DNA of 64,000 bases from positions 1,024,001 through 1,088,000 of the forward strand of contig CAWJCS010000003.1 of the NCBI GenBank assembly GCA_963841435.1, read 5' to 3'. Position 1 is the first letter of the stretch. Each line of letters begins with the position of its first letter. This stretch comes from an uncultured delta proteobacterium. Lineage in GTDB: Bacteria; Myxococcota_A; Polyangia; Polyangiales; Polyangiaceae. This document shows positions 7,807-49,712 of this stretch, in pieces. Both the position numbers and the translations under genes were made by a program. The notes beneath the pieces were generated by a model. It was not told the DNA's origin and made no database searches. It was given only the letters and a program-made list of their open reading frames with translations.

Positions 7807-8462
7807 GGCATCCGTCCTTCCAGAATGTGGCCCACGTCCTCGGGCACGGGCCGCCCGGCGGCGCGCCGTTCGCTCGCGTAGTCCTCGAGCATCCGCAAAA
7901 GCTCCGCGCCCCGACGTGCCCCGAGACCCTCGATGCCGGCCACGGGCACGCCCATGAAGATCGCCTTCATCACGAGCTGATTGAAGCCTCGCTCGGGAAA
8001 GTGAGCGGCCGGATAGGCGTTATGGCAGGCGATGGCCTCGAACACCCGACCGGCGTTCGCGCGGGCACCGAGCAAGCCCGTCTCGACGAAGCGCGCCGGG
8101 CCGGGCAAAAGCCCGAGGATCCTCAGCAAGCTCTCCTGCTCGCCAATCTCCCCGCTCTCGAACAGCGCGAGCACCTCGCGCGGCTGCGCGTCGGGCGCGA
8201 CCCGGGCGAGAGAGGTGAGCAGCAACGCGGCACGGGCCAAGTCGAGCCCGGTTTGGCCCCCCCCTGGCGGGAGGGGGAAAAGGTCGGGCCGGGGGGACGG
8301 GCGCTCGCGGGCGCCCGGGCCGAGCTTGCGAGCCGCCGCCGCGAAGGCGGTGCGGAAGCCGACGCTCGACGGCGCCTCCGGCCCGTCGAGCACGCGGCCG
8401 AGCCAGGCGCGCGCCGAACCCGAAAGAGCGATGGCTTCGAGCAAGCGCTCAGGTTCCGCCAT
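7803..8462 (-). CDS. eboA: EboA domain protein
   Basis: AIACHNAYPAAHF...FNQLVMKAIF...ERRAAGRPVP C-terminus; coupled to eboB. Confidence 0.85.
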   Translation of the reverse strand: MAEPERLLEAIALSGSARAWLGRVLDGPEAPSSVGFRTAFAAAARKLGPGARERPSPRPDLFPLPPGGGQTGLDLARAALLLTSLARVAPDAQPREVLALFESGEIGEQESLLRILGLLPGPARFVETGLLGARANAGRVFEAIACHNAYPAAHFPERGFNQLVMKAIFMGVPVAGIEGLGARRGAELLRMLEDYASERRAAGRPVPEDVGHILEGRMP

Positions 8463-8482
8463 GACAGACGAGGCGTACTAGC

Positions 8483-9463
8483 ATGGCGGGGTTGCCCTCG
8501 CTCGCCGAGTTCCCGCCGTCGTTCCTGCTCGCCGTCGCGGTCGCTCTCGGGCTCGTGCTCGGTAGCTTCCTGAACGTCGTCATCCATCGCTTGCCGCGTG
8601 GCGAGAGCATTGCCTTCCCAGGGTCTCATTGCCCGGGCTGCGGCAAGCCCATCGCACCGCGCGACAACGTCCCCGTCCTAAGCTACCTGGTCTTGCGCGG
8701 GCGCGCTCGTTGTTGTGGCACGCGCATCTCACCGCGCTACCCGCTCGTGGAGGCGATCGGCGGTCTGCTCGCCTGGGCCATCATGAGCACGATCGTGCTC
8801 GACTTGCCGCTCGACACGTCGCTCGGTCGGGCCGCGGGGCTCTTCGCCGTCAATCTGGCGCTCGGGCTCGGCCTCGTCGCGGCGGCGTTCATCGATCTCG
8901 ATCACATGCTCTTGCCCGACGAGATCACGCTCGGCGGGCTCGTGCTCGGCATCGCGAGCGTCCCCTTGCGCCCGGGGGCAACGTTTCTCGAGTCGCTCAT
9001 CGGCGCGGCCGTGGGCTTCTTCATCGTGTGGCTGCCGTTCGGCCTCTTGTACAGGCTCGTCAGGGGCCGACACGGCATGGGTCTCGGTGACGCGAAGCTC
9101 GTCGCGCTCGCGGGGGCGTGGTTCGGGTGGCCCGGCGCCGCGTTCGCGCTGCTCGCGGGCGCCGTGCAAGCCACCGCCACCCTGCTCGTGGTCTTTTCGC
9201 TCGGCAAGAAGCTCGACGAGCCAGCGTCCGTCGTCGAGGAGCGCCGGGCGCTCCGCGCCGCCATCGAAGCCGCCGAAGGCCCGGAACGCGACGCCCTCGA
9301 GCGCGAGCTCGCCGAGGATCCGCTGGGCACCGAGCCCGACCCGGGGATCGGCGCGATGCGGCTGCCGTTCGGGCCGTTCATCGTGCTCGCCATCGTCGAA
9401 TACCTGCTCTTCGGCCCACTCATCCGCGCCGAGCTCTTCGGCGGTCTCGCCGACCTGCCGTGA
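8483..9463 (+). CDS. pilD: Prepilin peptidase / N-methyltransferase (A24)
   Basis: GSFLNVVIHRLP, SHCPGC, RYPLVE, FIDLD, MGLGDAKL and PFGPF motifs. Confidence 0.93.
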   Translation: MAGLPSLAEFPPSFLLAVAVALGLVLGSFLNVVIHRLPRGESIAFPGSHCPGCGKPIAPRDNVPVLSYLVLRGRARCCGTRISPRYPLVEAIGGLLAWAIMSTIVLDLPLDTSLGRAAGLFAVNLALGLGLVAAAFIDLDHMLLPDEITLGGLVLGIASVPLRPGATFLESLIGAAVGFFIVWLPFGLLYRLVRGRHGMGLGDAKLVALAGAWFGWPGAAFALLAGAVQATATLLVVFSLGKKLDEPASVVEERRALRAAIEAAEGPERDALERELAEDPLGTEPDPGIGAMRLPFGPFIVLAIVEYLLFGPLIRAELFGGLADLP

Positions 9464-41934: not shown

Positions 41935-43062
41935 ATGCCCATCGAAATCCGCGAGATCCCCATCGGCGGACGCGTCGAAGGCTTCCTCGACCTGGTGGAC
42001 TACGTGTACCGGGACGACCCCTGTTACGTGCGCCCCCTCGATCTGGACATGAAGCAGCGCCTCGGCAAAAAGCACCCGTTCTTCGACCACGCCGAAGGCA
42101 CGCTATTCACCGCGCACCGCAACGGCTGGTGCGTCGGCCGCGCGAGCGCGCAGATCGACCGTGAGCACCTTGCCCTCCACAAGGACGACGCCGGATTCTT
42201 CGGCTTCTTCGACACGATCGACGACGAAGAAGTCGCAACTGGCCTCCTCGACGCCGCGGCGCGCTGGCTCAAGGCGCGCGGTATGAAGCGCATGCGCGGC
42301 CCGTTCTCGTTTTCGATCAACGAAGAGCTCGGCTGCCTCGTGGAGGGTTTCGACACCCCACCCATGATCATGATGCAGCACCACCGACCCTACCAGGGCG
42401 GGCTCATCGAGGGCGCCGGCCTGAAGCGGCTCAAGGATTTCTACGCCTGGCGTTACACCGTCGGCAAGGTGCCGCCTCGCGCCCAGAAAGCCCACGACGA
42501 AATCGAGGCGATGCCAAACGTGACATCGCGTCACATCGACATGAAGAACCTCGATGCCGACGTCCACACGGTGATGGACATCTTCAACGACGCCTGGCAG
42601 GACAACTGGAGCTTCGTCCCGTTCACCGAAAGCGAGCTGCAAAAGCTCGCGGCCGATCTACGCATGATCGCGATTCCGGCGCTCAGCTACATCACACAAG
42701 TGGATGGCGAGCCGGCCGCGGTGGCCGTGGCGCTGCCGAACCTCAACGAGCTCATCAAGGACCTGCACGGCAGCCTGTTCCCGGTCGGGCTTCCCAAGCT
42801 GCTCTGGCGACTGAAGGTCGTCGGGCCGAAGACCGCGCGCCTGATCATCCTCGGTATCAAGCGAAAGTTCCGCAGCCAGCGAAAGTACGCCGGGCTCAGC
42901 ACGTACCTCTACACGAAGATGAACCACACCGGTCGTGACCTCGGCTTCGAGTGGGGCGAGCTTTCCTGGACCGACGAGGACAACGGCCCCGTGAACGTGG
43001 CGATCAAGTTCATGGGCGGCAAGATCTACAAGCGGTACCGTGTCTACGAGCGCGAGCTCTGA
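41935..43062 (+). CDS. bcerS: GNAT-fold N-acyltransferase, probable bacterial ceramide synthase
   Basis: HPFF, VGRASAQID, GFFGFFD, MRGPFSFSINEELG.LVEGFDTPP, LPNLNE and ELSWTDEDN. Confidence 0.78.
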   Translation: MPIEIREIPIGGRVEGFLDLVDYVYRDDPCYVRPLDLDMKQRLGKKHPFFDHAEGTLFTAHRNGWCVGRASAQIDREHLALHKDDAGFFGFFDTIDDEEVATGLLDAAARWLKARGMKRMRGPFSFSINEELGCLVEGFDTPPMIMMQHHRPYQGGLIEGAGLKRLKDFYAWRYTVGKVPPRAQKAHDEIEAMPNVTSRHIDMKNLDADVHTVMDIFNDAWQDNWSFVPFTESELQKLAADLRMIAIPALSYITQVDGEPAAVAVALPNLNELIKDLHGSLFPVGLPKLLWRLKVVGPKTARLIILGIKRKFRSQRKYAGLSTYLYTKMNHTGRDLGFEWGELSWTDEDNGPVNVAIKFMGGKIYKRYRVYEREL

Positions 43063-44043
43063 ATGACGGTCCTCGTTACGGGTGCCACGGGCTTTCTGGG
43101 CTCGCACGTCGTGGAGCAGCTCGCGCGCTCCGGGCGCGCGGTTCGAGCGCTCGCGCGAAAGACGAGCGATACGCGGTTTCTGGTCTCGCTGGGCGTGGAG
43201 ATCGCCGAGGGCGCCATCGAGGATCGTGACGCCGTGGCGCGCGCCGCCCGCGGCGTCACCGGCATCGTGCACGCGGCGGGCCTCGTCAAGGCGAGGTCAC
43301 CCGAAGAGTTCATGCGGACCAACCACGGCGGCACGCAAAACCTGCTCGAAGCCGCGCTCGAGGAGCCGGCGCTCGAGCGTTTCGTGCTGGTCTCGAGCCT
43401 ATCCGCGCTGCGCCCGAGCGACGGCAGCGGCACCCCCATCCCCGAAGATGCCGAGCCCCACCCCGTCACCGAGTACGGCAAGAGTAAGCTCGCGGCGGAG
43501 CACGCCGCGCGCGCGCTCGAAGGCCGCATCCCGATCACGATCGTGCGACCGCCCGCGATCTACGGCCCGCGCGACCGCGAGATCCTCGCGTTCTTCAAAT
43601 CGATGAAGCTCGGCATTTTGCCGCTGCTCGGCTCGACCCAGAACAAGCTCAGCATGATCTACGGCAGCGACTGCGCCGCGGCTTGCATCGCAGCGCTCGC
43701 AGCGCGACTACCGAGCGGAACGGCGCTGCACGTCGACGACGGCCAGGTGCACACCATGCAGGAGCTCATCGAGCGAGCGGAAGCCGCCATGGGCTCGCGC
43801 GCGCGCTTGAGATTCCATCTACCGCGCCGGCTCGTCGAAACGGCGGCGCTCGGCGCCGAGCTCTACGGGCGTGCGACGAACCGCGCCGTCATGCTCACTC
43901 GCGACAAATGCAACGAGCTCTTCGAGCAGTGGGTCTGTGACGGCGCGCGAGCCAGGGGGCTGCTCGGCTGGCAACCCGAAGTTCGCTTCGCGGACGGCAT
44001 CGAGCGGACCGTGCGCTGGTACCGAGAAGCGGGCTGGCTGTAG
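43063..44043 (+). CDS. cerR: NAD-dependent epimerase/dehydratase (extended SDR), probable ceramide reductase
   Basis: VTGATGFLG, HAAGLVKA, VSSLSA, YGKSKL and RPPAIYGPRD; abuts bcerS. Confidence 0.7.
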   Translation: MTVLVTGATGFLGSHVVEQLARSGRAVRALARKTSDTRFLVSLGVEIAEGAIEDRDAVARAARGVTGIVHAAGLVKARSPEEFMRTNHGGTQNLLEAALEEPALERFVLVSSLSALRPSDGSGTPIPEDAEPHPVTEYGKSKLAAEHAARALEGRIPITIVRPPAIYGPRDREILAFFKSMKLGILPLLGSTQNKLSMIYGSDCAAACIAALAARLPSGTALHVDDGQVHTMQELIERAEAAMGSRARLRFHLPRRLVETAALGAELYGRATNRAVMLTRDKCNELFEQWVCDGARARGLLGWQPEVRFADGIERTVRWYREAGWL

Positions 44044-44145: not shown

Positions 44146-44183
44146 CCGTCACCAGCTCGTCACGCGTCCGTCACGCATTGACG
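44146..44183 (+). promoter_or_regulatory. Pho-box-like site: three CGTCAC direct repeats with 11-bp period, then TTGACG
   Basis: GTCAC at 44148, 44159 and 44170, immediately upstream of phoU-pstSCABB. Confidence 0.75.
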
Positions 44184-44216: not shown

Positions 44217-45308
44217 ATGACACACTTCGAAGAGACCCTCGAGCGTGACGCGGCGCGCATTCGGCGCAAGATGCAGGAGATGGCCGGCCTGTGCGGCATG
44301 GCGCTCGAAGGCTGCCTGAAGGCGCTCGCGGAGAAAAATCGCCAGCTTGCCTACTCGGTCATCATGCGCGACCAGCGCATCGACGAGCTGGAAAAGGAAA
44401 TCGACAGGCTTTGCCTCGAGTTCATCGTGCGCCAACAACCGGTCGCCGGCACGCTGCGTTTCGTGTACGCAACGATCAAGGTGAACTCGGAGCTCGAGCG
44501 CGTCGGCGACTACGCCGAAAGCATGGCCCGGCAAATCCTCTTGCTCTCGGAGCTCGACGTGCGGGTTCCCATCGAGCGCTTCCGGGAGATTGCGGGGCTC
44601 GCGATCCCCATGTTCCACGGCGCCGTCGAAGCGTTCCTCGCCCAAGACCCCGATCGGGCTCGTCGCACGATGGAGAGCGAGGAACCGGTCGATCGACTGC
44701 GCCATGACCTGAGCAGCGATCTCATCCAGATGCGCCAGGACCAGGAAATTCCGCTCGAGGCGCTCGCGCCGCTGATGGCAATCGTCAACCGCTTCGAGCG
44801 GGTCGCCGATCAGGCGAAGAGCATCTGTCAGGAAGCAATCTACGTGAGCACGGGGGAGTACCTGAAGCACTCGGGTAGCGAGGTCTTTCGTGTGCTGTTC
44901 GTCGACGAGCACAATGCCTGTCGCAGTCAAATGGCGGAGGCCGTCGGTATCGCGCTCGGGCAGCCGAAGTTCGTGTTCACGAGCGCAGGGCTCGACCGCG
45001 AGCCAGTCGACCCCGGCACCATCAGGATCCTCACGGAACACGGCATCGACGTTTCACATCTCACGGCGAAAACCGTCGCCCAGGTGCCGCACCTCGACCA
45101 CTACCAAATCATCGTGGCGCTCGCAAAAGAGGCCCGACGCGTGTTTCCGCCGCCTCCGACCAAGGCCGTGTGCCTCGACTGGAGTATGCCGGATCCCTCC
45201 AAGTTGGGGGGCACGCCCGAGCAGGTTCGCGAAGCCTACGACCGAACGTACAAGGCCCTGGAAGGCTATGTCCGAGACCTCGTGGAGGCCGTCCTCGGCG
45301 ACGGCTAG
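44217..45308 (+). CDS. phoU: Phosphate signalling protein PhoU fused to a C-terminal LMW-PTP/ArsC-fold domain
   Basis: DQRIDELE, QQPVA, ELERVGDYA and ERVADQA (PhoU); VLFVDEHNACRSQMAEA, SAG and WSMPDPS (LMWPc). Confidence 0.9.
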   Translation: MTHFEETLERDAARIRRKMQEMAGLCGMALEGCLKALAEKNRQLAYSVIMRDQRIDELEKEIDRLCLEFIVRQQPVAGTLRFVYATIKVNSELERVGDYAESMARQILLLSELDVRVPIERFREIAGLAIPMFHGAVEAFLAQDPDRARRTMESEEPVDRLRHDLSSDLIQMRQDQEIPLEALAPLMAIVNRFERVADQAKSICQEAIYVSTGEYLKHSGSEVFRVLFVDEHNACRSQMAEAVGIALGQPKFVFTSAGLDREPVDPGTIRILTEHGIDVSHLTAKTVAQVPHLDHYQIIVALAKEARRVFPPPPTKAVCLDWSMPDPSKLGGTPEQVREAYDRTYKALEGYVRDLVEAVLGDG

Positions 45309-45321
45309 TGAAGGAAGAACC

Positions 45322-46269
45322 ATGACTAAGCAAACTTGGATTCTTGCCGCCTCGCGCGGCCTGCCGCTGGCGCGCCGCGCCGTCACCCTGGGCATCGTGG
45401 CGTTGTTGGCGGGCGGAGCCTGCAAGAAGAAGGCGGACACTTCTCAGGAAAGCGCTGGGGCGACCCCGGACAAGCTCTCGGTCCAGAACATCGGGTCCGA
45501 CACCATGGTGAATCTCGCCCAGGCCTGGGCGGAGGAGTACGCGAAGGTGGAGCCGAACGTCTCCGTCGAGGTCTCCGGTGGCGGCTCCGGCGTCGGGATC
45601 GCTGCGCTCATCAACAAGACAGCCGACATTGCCAATGCGAGCCGCAAGATGGAGCCCGAAGAGATGGAGAAGGCCAAGGCGAACGTCGGGGCGATGCCGA
45701 CGGAATTCTTGGTGGGCTACGACGGGCTCGCGGTCTACGTGAACAAGGACAACCCGCTCGATAGCATCAGCATCGAGGAGCTCGGCGGCATCTATCGTGA
45801 GGGCGGCACGATTTCACACTGGGCGCAGGTCGGCGTCGCAGGCATCCCCGGCTCGAAAAGCGACGACATCATCCGCATCAGCCGCCAGAACAACTCGGGC
45901 ACGTATGCGTATTTTCGCGAAACCGTCGTCGGCAAGGGGCATGACTACAAGCCTGGGTCTCTCGACATGAACGGCTCGAAGGACGTCGTCGAGCAGGTGG
46001 CGAAGACCCCCGGCGCCATCGGCTACGCCGGTCTCGGCTATGCGACGCACGAGGTGAAAATCCTCAAGGTTTCCGCGAAGAAAGGCGAACCCGGCGTGCT
46101 GCCGAGCATCGCCACCGTGCACGACAAGAGCTATCCGATCTCCCGACCGATGTTCATGTACACGCCGGGGGCACCCGCGCCACACGTCAGGAAGTACATC
46201 GAGTGGACCATGTCACCCGCTGGTCAGAAGATCGTGGAGGAGACGGGGTACGTCCCGCTGCTGCGGTAG
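45322..46269 (+). CDS. pstS: Phosphate ABC transporter substrate-binding lipoprotein
   Basis: GSDTM, GGGSGVG, DIANASR, RQNNSGTY and YPISRP. Confidence 0.95.
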   Translation: MTKQTWILAASRGLPLARRAVTLGIVALLAGGACKKKADTSQESAGATPDKLSVQNIGSDTMVNLAQAWAEEYAKVEPNVSVEVSGGGSGVGIAALINKTADIANASRKMEPEEMEKAKANVGAMPTEFLVGYDGLAVYVNKDNPLDSISIEELGGIYREGGTISHWAQVGVAGIPGSKSDDIIRISRQNNSGTYAYFRETVVGKGHDYKPGSLDMNGSKDVVEQVAKTPGAIGYAGLGYATHEVKILKVSAKKGEPGVLPSIATVHDKSYPISRPMFMYTPGAPAPHVRKYIEWTMSPAGQKIVEETGYVPLLR

Positions 46270-46275
46270 GCCACC

Positions 46276-47244
46276 ATGGAGGAACGCGTCGTGGATGTGT
46301 CCCCTCAGTCGGCCCCGGGTGCTAGCTCGGTAGCCGTGCGCCCGCGCCCCCACGTGCGGCGACGGCCGTGGGAGCAGCCACTCGAGATCGGCCTCGAGTG
46401 GCTGATTCGCGTGTGCGGCGTCAGCGCCATCCTCTTCGTCTTCAGCATCTTCTTCTTCGTCTTCCGTGAAGGCGTCGGCATGCTGTTCGGCGGGCTCGAC
46501 CTCACGCAGTTCTTCTTCTCCACCGAGTGGTACCCGACGTCGGTGAGGCACGTCCGCTACGGCGCGCTCGCTCTGATCGTCGGAACCTTCAGCGTTACGT
46601 CGCTCGCGATGTTCATCGCCGTGCCGTTCGGGCTCGGCGGAGCCGTGTTCGTCTCCGAGTTCTGCGGCCCGCGCCTGCGCGAGACACTGAAGATCGTCAT
46701 CGAGCTCCTCGCCGCCATTCCCTCGGTGGTCTGGGGCTTCATCGGGCTCTCGGTCATGAATCCCCTGATTCAGGAGCTCTTCCACGTACCCGTGGGGCTC
46801 AACGTGCTGAACGGTGCGCTCCTGCTCGCTCTGATGAGCGTTCCCATCATGGTGAGCATCGGCGAGGACGCGCTCAAGGCCGTGCCCGATTCGTATCGCG
46901 AGGCTGCGCTCGCGATGGGCGCCACGCGCTGGCAGGCCGTCTACCGCGTGCTCCTGCCAGCGGCGCGCAATGGCCTGCTCGCCGCCGTCCTGCTCGGCGT
47001 CGGGCGCGCCGTCGGCGAGACCATGGCCGTCCTGATGGCGACCGGGCACGCCATCAACATCCCGAAGAGCATCTTCGATCCGGTCCGGACCCTCACCGCC
47101 ACCATCGCCGCCGAGCTCGGCGAGGCGTCCGTGGGCTCCGCACACTACCAGGTGCTGTTCGTCATCGGCATCCTGCTTTTCACCATCACTTTCGTCGTGA
47201 ATCTCGTCGCCGACCTCGTGGTCAAGGGCACGGGCAAGGAATAG
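46276..47244 (+). CDS. pstC: Phosphate ABC transporter permease
   Basis: ELLAAIPSVVWG, EAALAMGATRW and GRAVGETMAV. Confidence 0.95.
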   Translation: MEERVVDVSPQSAPGASSVAVRPRPHVRRRPWEQPLEIGLEWLIRVCGVSAILFVFSIFFFVFREGVGMLFGGLDLTQFFFSTEWYPTSVRHVRYGALALIVGTFSVTSLAMFIAVPFGLGGAVFVSEFCGPRLRETLKIVIELLAAIPSVVWGFIGLSVMNPLIQELFHVPVGLNVLNGALLLALMSVPIMVSIGEDALKAVPDSYREAALAMGATRWQAVYRVLLPAARNGLLAAVLLGVGRAVGETMAVLMATGHAINIPKSIFDPVRTLTATIAAELGEASVGSAHYQVLFVIGILLFTITFVVNLVADLVVKGTGKE

Positions 47245-47247
47245 CGC

Positions 47248-48132
47248 GTGTTCACCGAGACTCCCCACATCAAGAGGAAACGCCGCGAGGAGCGGCTGAT
47301 GCACGTCATCCTCGGCCTGATGGCGGGCGCCATGGTCGTGCCGCTCGTGGTCATCGTCACCTACCTCCTCGTGCAGGCGTGGCCGCTCCTGTCGCTCGAT
47401 TTTCTGCTGACGAACCCGGCGGGAGGCATGCGCCGAGGCGGCATCTGGTCCGCGCTGCTCGGCACCTTCTACCTGGTGACGACGTCGCTCTTGATCGCGG
47501 CGCCCATCGGCGTGCTCGCTGCCGTCTACCTGAACGAGTACGCGAAGAAGAACGTCTTCACGCGCATCATCAACCTCGCCGTCGTGAACCTCGCGGGGGT
47601 GCCCAGTATCGTTCACGCCCTGTTCGGGCTCGGCGCGTTCGTGCTCTTCGCGGGCATCGGCCGCTCGATCCTCGCGGCCTCGCTCACGCTGGCGATCATG
47701 ACGTTGCCCGTGATCATCGCCAGCACGAAGGAGGCGCTTTCCTCCGTCCCCATGTCGTTCCGTGAGGCCTGCTGGAACGTGGGGGCGACGCGCTGGCAGA
47801 CGATCCGCGGCATCGTCCTGCCGAATTCGATCAGCGGGATCCTCACGGGCGTCATCCTGCAGGTGTCGCGCACGGCAGGTGAAACGGCTCCCATCATGTT
47901 CACCGGCGCCGTTTTCTTCAAGAAGATCCCGGAGGGTGACCTCTTTGCCTACAACCTGACGGATCAGTGCATGGCCCTCTCCATGCATTTGTTCACGATC
48001 ACGACCCAGGTCACGGAGGCGCCCCACGCGCTTCCCTATGCCACCGCCGTCGTGCTGCTCGGCGCCGTGTTGCTCGTCAACGCCGCGGCCATCTTGGTGC
48101 GAGTCAAGCTGCGCGCGAGGAAGAAGTGGTAG
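47248..48132 (+). CDS. pstA: Phosphate ABC transporter permease
   Basis: YLNEYA, LAGVPSIV and AGETAPI. Confidence 0.95.
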   Translation: MFTETPHIKRKRREERLMHVILGLMAGAMVVPLVVIVTYLLVQAWPLLSLDFLLTNPAGGMRRGGIWSALLGTFYLVTTSLLIAAPIGVLAAVYLNEYAKKNVFTRIINLAVVNLAGVPSIVHALFGLGAFVLFAGIGRSILAASLTLAIMTLPVIIASTKEALSSVPMSFREACWNVGATRWQTIRGIVLPNSISGILTGVILQVSRTAGETAPIMFTGAVFFKKIPEGDLFAYNLTDQCMALSMHLFTITTQVTEAPHALPYATAVVLLGAVLLVNAAAILVRVKLRARKKW

Positions 48133-48905
48133 AAGCCGCCCCCGCTCACGGGCGCGCGAAGATCGCGGTGAGCGATCTTCGCCTGAGATACGGGGACCGA
48201 GAGGTGATTCACGGCATCTCGTTCGACGTCGAACCGAACGAGATTTTCGCCGTCATTGGACCCGCCCAATCCGGCAAGAGCTCGCTTTTGCGGTGCTTGA
48301 ATCGGACCATCGAGTTCGAGCCCGAGGCGCGGGCCTCGGGCTCGATCCGCATCGACGGTCTCGACGTCTCCATGGTGAAGAACGTCTACGAGCTCCGGCG
48401 CCGCGTGGGCATGGTGGCTCCGCTGCCCGTCGGCTTGCCCCTCAGCATTTACGAGAACGTCGCGTTCGCGCCGAGGGCCTCCGGCCTACGCGACAAAGCC
48501 GAGCTCGACGCCCTGGTCGAACGCTGCCTCAGGCAGGCCGCGCTGTGGGACGAGGTGAAGGATCGACTGCATTCGCTCGGTACCAAGCTCTCCGGTGGGC
48601 AGCAGCAGCGGCTCACGATCGCGCGCGCGCTGTCGCACGAGCCCGAGATCCTGTGTCTCGACGAGTTCTCGATTGCCATCGATCCCGTGACCACGATGCG
48701 CATCGAAGAGGTCCTGAAAAAGCTCAAGCAGCAGATGACGATCGTGCTCGTCACCAATCTGGTCCAGCAGGCTCGCCGGCTCGCGAGCCACACCATGTTC
48801 CTGTGGAACGGCGAAATCATCGAGGTGGGGACGACCGATCTGTTGTTCTCGGACAAGCCGAAGGACCAGAGAACCTACGACTACGTGAACGGCATCTTCG
48901 GATGA
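48126..48905 (+). CDS. pstB: Phosphate ABC transporter ATP-binding protein, copy 1 (degenerate Walker A, Q-loop and H-switch)
   Basis: GPAQSGKS, ALWDEVKDRL, LSGGQQQR, LDEFSIAID and VTNL. Confidence 0.88.
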   Translation: MVEAAPAHGRAKIAVSDLRLRYGDREVIHGISFDVEPNEIFAVIGPAQSGKSSLLRCLNRTIEFEPEARASGSIRIDGLDVSMVKNVYELRRRVGMVAPLPVGLPLSIYENVAFAPRASGLRDKAELDALVERCLRQAALWDEVKDRLHSLGTKLSGGQQQRLTIARALSHEPEILCLDEFSIAIDPVTTMRIEEVLKKLKQQMTIVLVTNLVQQARRLASHTMFLWNGEIIEVGTTDLLFSDKPKDQRTYDYVNGIFG

Positions 48906-49712
48906 TGGCGGCGCTACGTTCCACCGCGCCGCCGCCGGAGACGCTCGAGGGCGGCGGGATCGAGACCCGAGAGCTGTCGCTGTGGTACGCCGACTTTCAG
49001 GCGCTCCACGCCGTGACGCTCAGCATGAAGCGCGGCCTCATCACCTCGCTGATTGGTCCGTCGGGCTGCGGCAAGACCACGCTTCTACGCTGCTTCAACC
49101 GCGTCAACGAGCGCTACGGCTACGTGCGCACGACCGGCGAGATTCGCATCCTCGACAAGAATATCTACGACCCGGACGTTTCACTCGTCGAGCTCAGAAA
49201 GTCCGTGGGCATGGTGTTTCAGCGCCCGAACCCGTTGCCCATTTCCGTGTACGAGAACGTGGCGTTCGGGCTGCGCATCCACCATCCGCGCTCGGAGCTC
49301 AAGAAATCGCACGTCGACGAGGCCGTGGCCAAGGCGCTCACCGAGGTCGGTCTGTTCGACGACCTCAAGGACCGCCTGTCCAGCCGTGCCACCGACCTAC
49401 AGCTCGAACAGCAGCAGAAGCTCTGCATCGCGCGCCTCTTGCCGGTCCAGCCGAAAATCATCCTCATGGACGAGCCGTGCTCGGCGCTCGAACGTCGAGG
49501 GGACGCGCGCCATCGAGGAGCTGATGTGGACGTTGCGAGGCCGCTACACGATCGTCATCGTGACGCACAACATGGCCCAGGCGCGGCGCGCCAGCGACGA
49601 ATGCATCTTCATGTTGCTCGGCGAAATCATCGAGCACCGGCGCACCGAGGATCTGTTCCTGACGCCCTCGGACCCGCGCACGGCGGAGTACGTCGAAGGG
49701 CGCTACGGCTGA
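48902..49712 (+). CDS. pstB: Phosphate ABC transporter ATP-binding protein, copy 2 (degenerate signature); +1 frameshift near 49491
   Basis: GPSGCGKT, MVFQRPNP, LQLEQQQK and MDEPCSAL, then VTHNMAQA...YVEGRYG in the next frame. Confidence 0.88.

Follow-up and report, generated by a model that had tools for sequence, protein, structure and literature searches.

We analyzed a stretch of 64,000 nucleotides (the window; contig CAWJCS010000003.1, positions 1,024,001 to 1,088,000) from an uncultured delta proteobacterium of the Polyangiaceae. The GC content of its genome is 69%. At positions 44217-45308, on the forward strand like the other genes of its operon, the window carries a gene that encodes a protein of 363 amino acids (ATG at 44217; the stop codon at 45306-45308 is included). 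In this protein, a PhoU domain is followed by a domain with the fold of the protein tyrosine phosphatase of low molecular weight (LMW-PTP) and arsenate reductase ArsC, from which the catalytic cysteines have been lost. We call this domain psiArsC and the gene phoU-psiArsC. The gene heads an operon for a phosphate importer, Pst2, in the order phoU-psiArsC, pstS, pstC, pstA, pstB1 and pstB2. An earlier note on this DNA had described an in-frame fusion of PhoU with a catalytically dead LMWPc domain, and had proposed that this domain is a built-in phosphate sensor. Both Pfam domains score over their cut-offs in one open reading frame (ORF), and the fusion is as the note described it. The proposed function fares less well, as explained below.

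The fused protein and its lost catalytic residues

Residues 1-212 (44217-44852) contain two PhoU repeats, which form a helical bundle. This assignment is given by Pfam, NCBIfam, the structural model and Foldseek. PF01895 matches in two stretches with an E value of 1.9e-36 and 124.7 bits (cut-off 23.5), and the NCBIfam model TIGR02135 (phoU_full) gives 153.1 bits against a cut-off of 130.25, which passes the equivalog level. Each repeat possesses one conserved E/D-x-x-x-D motif (E94-R-V-G-D98 and E194-R-V-A-D198), a type of motif with a role in metal binding. In the alignment of 141 fused sequences, E94, R95, G97, D98 and R195 are invariant, and E194 and D198 are present in at least 90%. The psiArsC domain occupies residues 224-363 (44886-45305) and was identified by Pfam LMWPc, by comparison with ArsC structure 2l17 and by Foldseek. 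LMWPc (PF01451) covers residues 226-352 (E 4.5e-12) and, at 46.8 bits, exceeds its gathering score of 23.2. The specific ArsC models are far under their cut-offs, at about one third of them (64.5 against 174.3 bits for TIGR02691 and 55.7 against 157.6 bits for TIGR02689). The linker between the two domains (residues 213-223, 44853-44885) has low model confidence and conserved G213, K217 and H218: in the 141-sequence alignment, G213 is invariant and H218 has a weighted frequency of 0.94. Conservation of K217 and H218 is high within the close clade (below, this term stands for the 120 closest clusters), and TGE..K.PK is found at the same place in divergent forms. The linker could serve as a hinge or as a short motif.

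The AlphaFold2 (AF2) model, which was built with the 141-sequence alignment, has a mean predicted local distance difference test (pLDDT) score of 92.8 and a predicted template-modeling (pTM) score of 0.62. The pLDDT is above 90 in the PhoU part, mostly above 85 in psiArsC and below 50 at residues 218-220. Because of this drop and the pTM value, we read the model as two well-folded domains joined by a flexible linker, with an orientation that is not confidently fixed. In Foldseek searches, the PhoU part matched Aquifex PhoU (1t72_A) with a template-modeling (TM) score for the target of 0.95 and a root-mean-square deviation of 1.6 over 215 columns. The psiArsC part matched Deinococcus indicus ArsC2 (8p6m_B) and Bacillus subtilis ArsC (1jl3_A), with TM scores of about 0.87 each.

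ArsC enzymes of the LMW-PTP type work through a thiol cascade, which is needed for arsenate reduction. Their resolving cysteines are Cys82 and Cys89 in pI258 ArsC, or the equivalents in the glutaredoxin-coupled type. The closest solved sequence is Synechocystis ArsC (2l17, E 5.1e-15). In the alignment with this protein, FVCKRNSCRSQMAE stands opposite FVDEHNACRSQMAE, and the nucleophilic Cys is replaced by Asp230. The degenerate P-loop reads D230-E-H-N-A-C-R-S237 (44904-44927). The former resolving-Cys stretch (residues 299-311, 45111-45149) is IVALAKEARRVFP in this protein versus V[IV]T[LV]C......CP in stand-alone relatives, and both Cys residues are absent. N233, R236, S237 and the DP motif D326-P327 (45192-45197) are present. 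In terms of the LMW-PTP pattern (C-X5-R-S/T plus DP), the Cys is missing while R236, S237 and D326-P327 are there. All four features (the Asp in the P-loop DEHNACRS, the changed resolving-Cys region, the kept N/R/S and the kept DP) had been read correctly in the earlier note. With Asp for the nucleophilic Cys and both resolving Cys residues lost, the domain cannot reduce arsenate by way of the known thiol cascade. At the nucleophile position, 117 of the 120 closest clusters have D and three have G, and none has C. Thus, the fold is kept, an essential catalytic residue is lost and the domain is conserved among relatives, as a pseudoenzyme is defined. On the evidence of sequence comparison, these results support the view that psiArsC is a pseudoenzyme descended from an LMW-PTP-type arsenate reductase, and the earlier note's statement that the domain is catalytically dead as an ArsC or LMW-PTP is likewise supported. 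It should be mentioned that the genome contains four further matches to the LMWPc family, on contigs C2 and C5 (best E 1.4e-38), which presumably are genuine LMW-PTP or ArsC enzymes.

Distribution of the fusion and conservation of the old pocket

Homologues were searched with residues 215-363 among proteins limited to 199-636 amino acids, at E<=1e-3. The search found 763 homologues, and PF01895 and PF01451 were both present in all 120 matches listed. An exhaustive HMMER search with the C-terminal domain against 50%-identity representatives listed 150 proteins, of which 57 also had an N-terminal PhoU match and 31 were full-length fusions, with identity down to about 31%. These 31 fusions are the distant representatives referred to below. 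A scan of species genomes yielded 24 loci from Myxococcota (Polyangiaceae and others), Haliangiales, Verrucomicrobiota (Akkermansiaceae, Opitutaceae and Methylacidiphilum) and Acidobacteriota (Holophagae and Thermoanaerobaculaceae). All 24 loci encode PhoU and psiArsC in a single frame, and truncation of the domain was found in none of them. A sequencing artefact, which the earlier note had named as a possible refutation, or an assembly artefact is ruled out by the 120 listed homologues with both domains and the 24 in-frame loci. A short-read contig identical to the window spans the P-loop codons, although it may stem from the source sample and hence is not independent. Where databases name the homologues, they use 'phosphate signaling complex protein PhoU' or 'phosphate transport system protein', so that the extra domain is invisible in the annotation.

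Within the genus, the fused form was found in 12 of 47 genomes, and in five of the 16 high-quality ones. The 12 carriers include the unpublished genome G341; the count is 11 of 46 when this genome is left out. Thus, the gene is accessory and its distribution is patchy. A search of 301 genomes sampled from the phylum with this clade's domain at E<=1e-15 had given a single genome with the fused form. This value was rejected as a distribution estimate because it is a threshold artefact: the search missed divergent forms, which were later found via PstB1. In that later search, PstB1 orthologues were detected at E<=1e-70 in 15 genomes of the same sample (the window's own genome included), and 10 regions were inspected. 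A divergent fused PhoU is encoded in five of these 10 regions (L062, L063, L065, L067 and L069, from other families of the same phylum), with the gene located between pstS and pstC and not at the operon head. A search of sequencing runs listed no RNA run, and just one soil-metagenome DNA run with a 0.14 share of words.

We then compared the residues of the old pocket at three distances from the window's protein. In real enzymes of the LMW-PTP/ArsC fold, the P-loop Arg is invariant and is needed to hold the oxyanion. In the close clade, N233 is kept in 114 of 120 clusters, C235 in 118, S237 in 119 and DP in all 120. R236 is Arg in 108 and is replaced by V (five), G (three), S (two), L (one) or K (one) in the other clusters. 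E231 and H232 are kept in 107 and 105 of the 120, respectively, although these +1 and +2 positions are variable in real enzymes. The distant representatives differ from this picture: the nucleophile position is D in 21, S in five, G in two, C in two and Y in one of the 31 proteins, Arg is kept in only seven (Leu takes its place in 12), and DP in 14. E, H and C are found at the positions of E231, H232 and C235 in eight, seven and 13 of the 31, respectively, and 24 have an 8-residue loop with a net negative charge. Finally, in the five divergent fused forms found via PstB1, Asp is present at the nucleophile position in five of five, and Arg and DP in none. Conservation of the Cys-to-Asp change, which the earlier note had proposed as a check, is thus seen in 117 of the 120 close clusters and in 21 of the 31 distant representatives.

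The weighted conservation ranks, which were calculated over the 148 domain positions in the 141 fused proteins, point in the same direction. The top ranks are taken by the core residues A240, W322, A257, G258, F228 and L227, and A240 and W322 are invariant in the 141 sequences. In contrast, R236 is 92nd, H232 104th and E231 81st; D230 is 28th and S237 21st. The mean identity to the query is 61% for the psiArsC part and 67% for the PhoU part, and in 30 distant representatives these values are 37% and 47%, respectively.

A tree of the PhoU parts contained 75 fused rows, namely 23 loci, 30 representatives, the query and 21 close clusters; L033, which has frameshifts, and P0169 were left out. The fused rows form one clade against six short PhoUs of the same order, with a value of 100 in the Shimodaira-Hasegawa-like approximate likelihood ratio test. 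Three sequences (L054, L056 and L059) were left out of the short-PhoU set, being wrong-frame ORFs with branch lengths of 5-10. Over the 75 rows, at least 17 changes between Arg and non-Arg are required, and four between D and non-D. As 13 of the 21 close clusters were picked for lacking Arg, the count gives real changes in a sample that is not random. Two fusions with Cys branch early: P0219 possesses the full catalytic set, and P0228 has the Cys without the Arg. P0219 is a singleton from a metagenome-assembled genome (MAG) of Deltaproteobacteria and has a long branch, and the support for the early branching is 85-92. With this support, the two fusions fit descent from an active PhoU-ArsC fusion.

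The Pst2 operon and the other Pho loci

The fused gene lies immediately upstream of pstS in 24 of 24 related loci. In the window, pstS (45322-46269) encodes a PBP_like_2 protein with 251 bits against the TIGR02136 cut-off of 206.6. It is followed by pstC (46276-47244; TIGR02138, 291.9 against 196.45 bits) and pstA (47248-48132; TIGR00974, 252.7 against 193.45 bits). Next come two genes for PstB-type ATPases, both of which score below the PstB cut-off of TIGR00972 (343.2 bits): pstB1 (48127-48905, with a putative GTG start at 48127), which encodes a divergent PstB, gives 278 bits, and pstB2 (48902-49712) gives 217 bits. PstB1 has the Walker A motif GPAQSGK and an intact LSGGQQQ signature, and its H-loop His is replaced (VTNL); all 17 sequences compared share these motifs without exception. 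In PstB2, Walker A (GPSGCGKT), Walker B and the H-loop are canonical, and the signature, LQLEQQQ, is degenerate. In other words, the two proteins, each of which shows 82% mean column identity across phyla, have complementary motif defects, which do not vary over three phyla. Given the established dimer architecture of ATP-binding cassette (ABC) proteins, these complementary defects predict that a PstB1/PstB2 dimer would have one consensus and one degenerate ATP site. Of the 24 loci, 16 extend to this point without being fragmented, and each of them encodes both PstB1 and PstB2. Three more long-read loci have both in fragments, and the other five stop before it.

The frame of pstB2 is broken near 49490 in the assembly: one frame runs to '...MDEPCSAL' and the +1 frame then continues to the stop at 49712. 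The orthologue in locus L012 is intact at the same place, and a short-read contig of 236 nt matches the window over 49425-49661 except for a single gap. These two observations suggest that the break is an assembly indel rather than the mark of a pseudogene.

Upstream of the operon, a Pho-box-like element with three GTCAC units at an 11-bp period is located at 44148-44174, 43-69 nt before the ATG. The triple element has one match in the window against 0.01 expected. In the 7.78-Mb genome, we counted 26 occurrences of the pair GTCACN6GTCAC and two of its reversed control. Three Pho loci account for six of the 26: the present one has two, which overlap, an orphan phoU has one and a phoB/phoR locus has three. 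Likewise, GTCAC/GTAAC repeats are present upstream of the fused phoU in five related loci of Polyangiaceae type (L011-L014 and L017). As far as sequence motifs can tell, the Pst2 operon is probably under the control of PhoB via this GTCAC-repeat Pho box. Further upstream lie an ORF of 375 amino acids without a Pfam match (41935-43062) and, directly after it, an NAD-dependent epimerase gene (43063-44043).

The genome encodes a canonical Pho locus elsewhere, at 579754-585334 of contig C5. This locus possesses two tandem OmpR-type (phoB-like) regulators, a PAS-HisKA (phoR-like) kinase, pstC, pstA and pstB. Its PstB passes the equivalog level (361.8 bits against 343.2), and both OmpR-type regulators have GTCAC-N6-GTCAC directly upstream. 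Neither pstS nor phoU was recognised within this interval. A gene for a TonB-dependent receptor adjoins the locus. In addition, an orphan canonical PhoU (228 amino acids, 210 bits) is encoded at 1377267-1377953 of contig C3 (positions 8267-8953 of locus L010). GTCAC-N6-GTCAC is found about 215 nt upstream of this gene, and its neighbours are methyltransferase and zinc-ribbon genes, with no pst genes among them. A further PhoU match was also found in four of five other carrier genomes; in the fifth, a Methylacidiphilum MAG of unknown completeness, only the fused one was found. Because a separate phoB-phoR-pstCAB set and an orphan short PhoU are present in the genome, we assign the fused protein to the second Pst system as its PhoU. 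The earlier note had seen in the fusion a possible direct cytoplasmic phosphate-sensing route beyond the canonical PstSCAB-PhoU-PhoR model. Our result does not bear this out: the fused PhoU belongs to a second Pst operon and is not an alternative to PstSCAB-PhoU.

A proposed role for psiArsC and comparison with known systems

We propose that psiArsC is a non-catalytic structural or regulatory module of a Pst2-specific PhoU, and we judge that this proposal has a slightly better than even chance of being right. It is based on the fact that the domain has been kept folded under purifying selection while the old oxyanion pocket has not been conserved. According to this idea, the fused protein would be the dedicated PhoU of the accessory phosphate importer Pst2. 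Its PhoU part (212 residues, intact) would bind the PstB ATPases and restrain transport and/or signalling, by analogy with PhoU from Escherichia coli and Salmonella. The psiArsC domain would most probably make a protein contact within the Pst2 complex, and the most plausible partner would be the PstB1/PstB2 pair of the same mobile operon. A complex prediction of psiArsC (residues 222-363) with PstB1 and PstB2, run without controls, gave a score of 0.00 against a mark of 0.32 and speaks neither for nor against such a contact. Asp230, which is better conserved than the Arg, probably replaces the negative charge of the thiolate at the N-terminus of helix 1 and may thereby stabilize the loop.

Several points weigh against this proposal. 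The contact partner is deduced, and with a pTM of 0.62 the single AF2 model suggests no fixed mutual docking of its domains. The link to the two PstBs is not exclusive: in region L068, pstS-pstC-pstA-pstB1-pstB2 occur without phoU in the 7.8 kb fetched, and in four other regions of the phylum only pstA-pstB1-pstB2 were recognised. The pocket residues, together with E231 and H232, are well kept in the protein's own clade, which would fit a retained or new local function that a structural module leaves unexplained. Furthermore, the seeds of the 24-locus scan included FVDEHNAC, so that these loci are biased to this motif and motif counts from them were not used, and the Pho-box reading comes from the motif itself.

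The strongest competitor starts from this well-kept pocket. Arsenate enters cells through Pst systems, and a sensor derived from ArsC at a Pst regulator would be biologically sensible. In this explanation, the dead P-loop would bind inorganic phosphate (Pi), arsenate or a phospho-ligand and signal to the PhoU part, which would then gate Pst2, at least in the clade with DEHNxCRS. The near-complete N233, R236, S237 and DP of the close clade agree with it, as does the occurrence of DEHNACRS in loci from three phyla, although the motif was part of a seed used to find them. Moreover, the fold is that of an oxyanion-binding ArsC, and one Foldseek match, 8p5n, was crystallised with arsenate. A Cys-to-Asp mutant of PTP1B has reportedly been the subject of a structural study (Romsicki 2003). 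The Arg, however, is replaced in 12 of the 120 close clusters, in 24 of the 31 distant representatives and in all five divergent in-phylum forms, which also lack DP. Its repeated change on the tree and its low conservation rank also count against this explanation. In addition, Asp230 and Glu231 place two negative charges in the loop, and a net negative loop, as in most of the distant representatives, would disfavour anions at neutral pH. Therefore, for the family as a whole, the earlier note's idea of a built-in Pi sensor based on the kept N/R/S pocket is unsupported. Oxyanion binding within the DEHNxCRS clade itself is possible, and we consider the sensor explanation unlikely without dismissing it. 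The loop also invites a reading with a newly evolved site, in which Asp230, Glu231, His232 and Cys235 would bind a metal or another ligand. PhoU proteins are known metal binders, and E231, H232 and C235 are kept in most of the close clade at positions two of which vary in real enzymes. Because the distant forms keep them poorly, and E231 and H232 rank low, we give this reading a very small chance. Residual catalysis, with Asp230 as a nucleophile or water activator in a slow, oxidation-proof phosphatase, is the least probable of all. R, S, N and the general acid of DP are kept in this protein, and a Cys-to-Asp mutant of PTP1B reportedly keeps low activity; yet the majority of distant relatives have lost Arg and DP, and the thiol cascade that arsenate reduction needs is absent.

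The decay of the former active site in distant and divergent relatives may also be explained without any function. An ancestral PhoU-ArsC fusion would have been inactivated, and the domain would since have been carried along with no role of its own beyond not disturbing PhoU. P0219 and P0228 fit decay from an active ancestor, within the limits of their branch support and the long branch of P0219, and psiArsC evolves faster than the PhoU part. Nevertheless, one would expect some lineages to have truncated a useless domain of 140 residues, and truncation was observed in none of the 24 loci. The full-length domain is seen in no fewer than three phyla and, at the 50% level, in 31 clusters, its core residues are invariant and its model is confident. 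We regard a neutral remnant as improbable. A bolder idea, which we think has rather poor prospects, is that PhoU-psiArsC and the asymmetric PstB1/PstB2 pair constitute a distinct class of importer. The dead domain would be a cytoplasmic receptor, either reading oxyanions (in the DEHNxCRS clade) or docking at the degenerate ATP site, and would mediate direct trans-inhibition of uptake. If this idea were true, it would provide a transporter-intrinsic cytoplasmic checkpoint for Pi or arsenate that is independent of PhoR.

To return to the non-catalytic module, two questions have long been open: how PhoU couples Pst to phosphate signalling, and whether the cell senses Pi in its cytoplasm. The fusion described here is real, widespread and unstudied, and our mechanistic claim is modest. 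It is a variant widespread in phyla of soil and freshwater, which combines a pseudoenzyme domain with a PstB heterodimer predicted to have one degenerate ATP site. It offers a separable handle on the transporter-related function of PhoU through deletion of the domain, natural variants without Arg (such as the DESNACVS type of L013), and comparison of Pst1 with Pst2 in one genome. Furthermore, it would illustrate cleanly, in bacteria, how an arsenate reductase can be recruited for a non-catalytic role. What this window adds is the putative Pho box, the layout of Pst1, Pst2 and the orphan PhoU, the finding that carriers are scattered within a genus, and a count of Arg losses from the tree. No paper on a PhoU-ArsC or PhoU-LMWPc fusion was found in the literature searched, the scope of which did not extend to subscription-only papers and supplements, and the available part of the Methylacidiphilum V4 genome paper makes no mention of PhoU.

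The fused protein shares with canonical PhoU (1t72 from Aquifex, 4q25 from Pseudomonas and 2i0m from Streptococcus pneumoniae) the two repeats, the helical bundle, the E/D-x-x-x-D motifs and the linkage to pst genes. It differs in the extra ArsC-fold domain of 140 residues. Canonical phoU is the last gene of its operon, whereas the fused gene is the first, or lies between pstS and pstC in divergent relatives. Moreover, the fused form is coupled to two unequal PstBs, forms a clade apart from the six short PhoUs and coexists with a separate short PhoU in the genome. PhoU has been described as bridging PstSCAB and PhoR and as repressing PhoR through its PAS domain (PMC13577022, PMC9239213). The psiArsC domain shares with ArsC of the LMW-PTP type (2l17, 1jl3, Staphylococcus aureus pI258 ArsC 1ljl and 8p6m) the fold, the P-loop frame xxxNxCRS, SAG, W-x-x-DP and the MAE helix start. 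In contrast to these enzymes, it lacks the nucleophile and the resolving Cys residues, scores below the family cut-offs, is fused to PhoU and is encoded outside an ars operon.

Known pseudophosphatases include STYX and, in receptor PTPs, the membrane-distal D2 domains; in some of them, Asp stands in for the catalytic Cys. Like them, psiArsC is a phosphatase fold without the nucleophile that would serve as a regulatory or binding module beside an active partner. Unlike them, it is bacterial, derived from ArsC and fused to a transporter regulator, and its phosphate-binding Arg is decaying. Members of the LMW-PTP family from Drosophila have been classed as pseudophosphatases (PMC7772506). The last comparison concerns the ATPases. 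As in the Pst2 operon, two tandem PstB paralogues follow pstC and pstA in two-PstB Pst systems, namely pstBA/pstBB from B. subtilis and pstB1/pstB2 from streptococci. The pair described here differs from them in that it is asymmetric, with PstB1 lacking the H-loop His and PstB2 carrying LQLEQ, and in that it travels with the fused PhoU.

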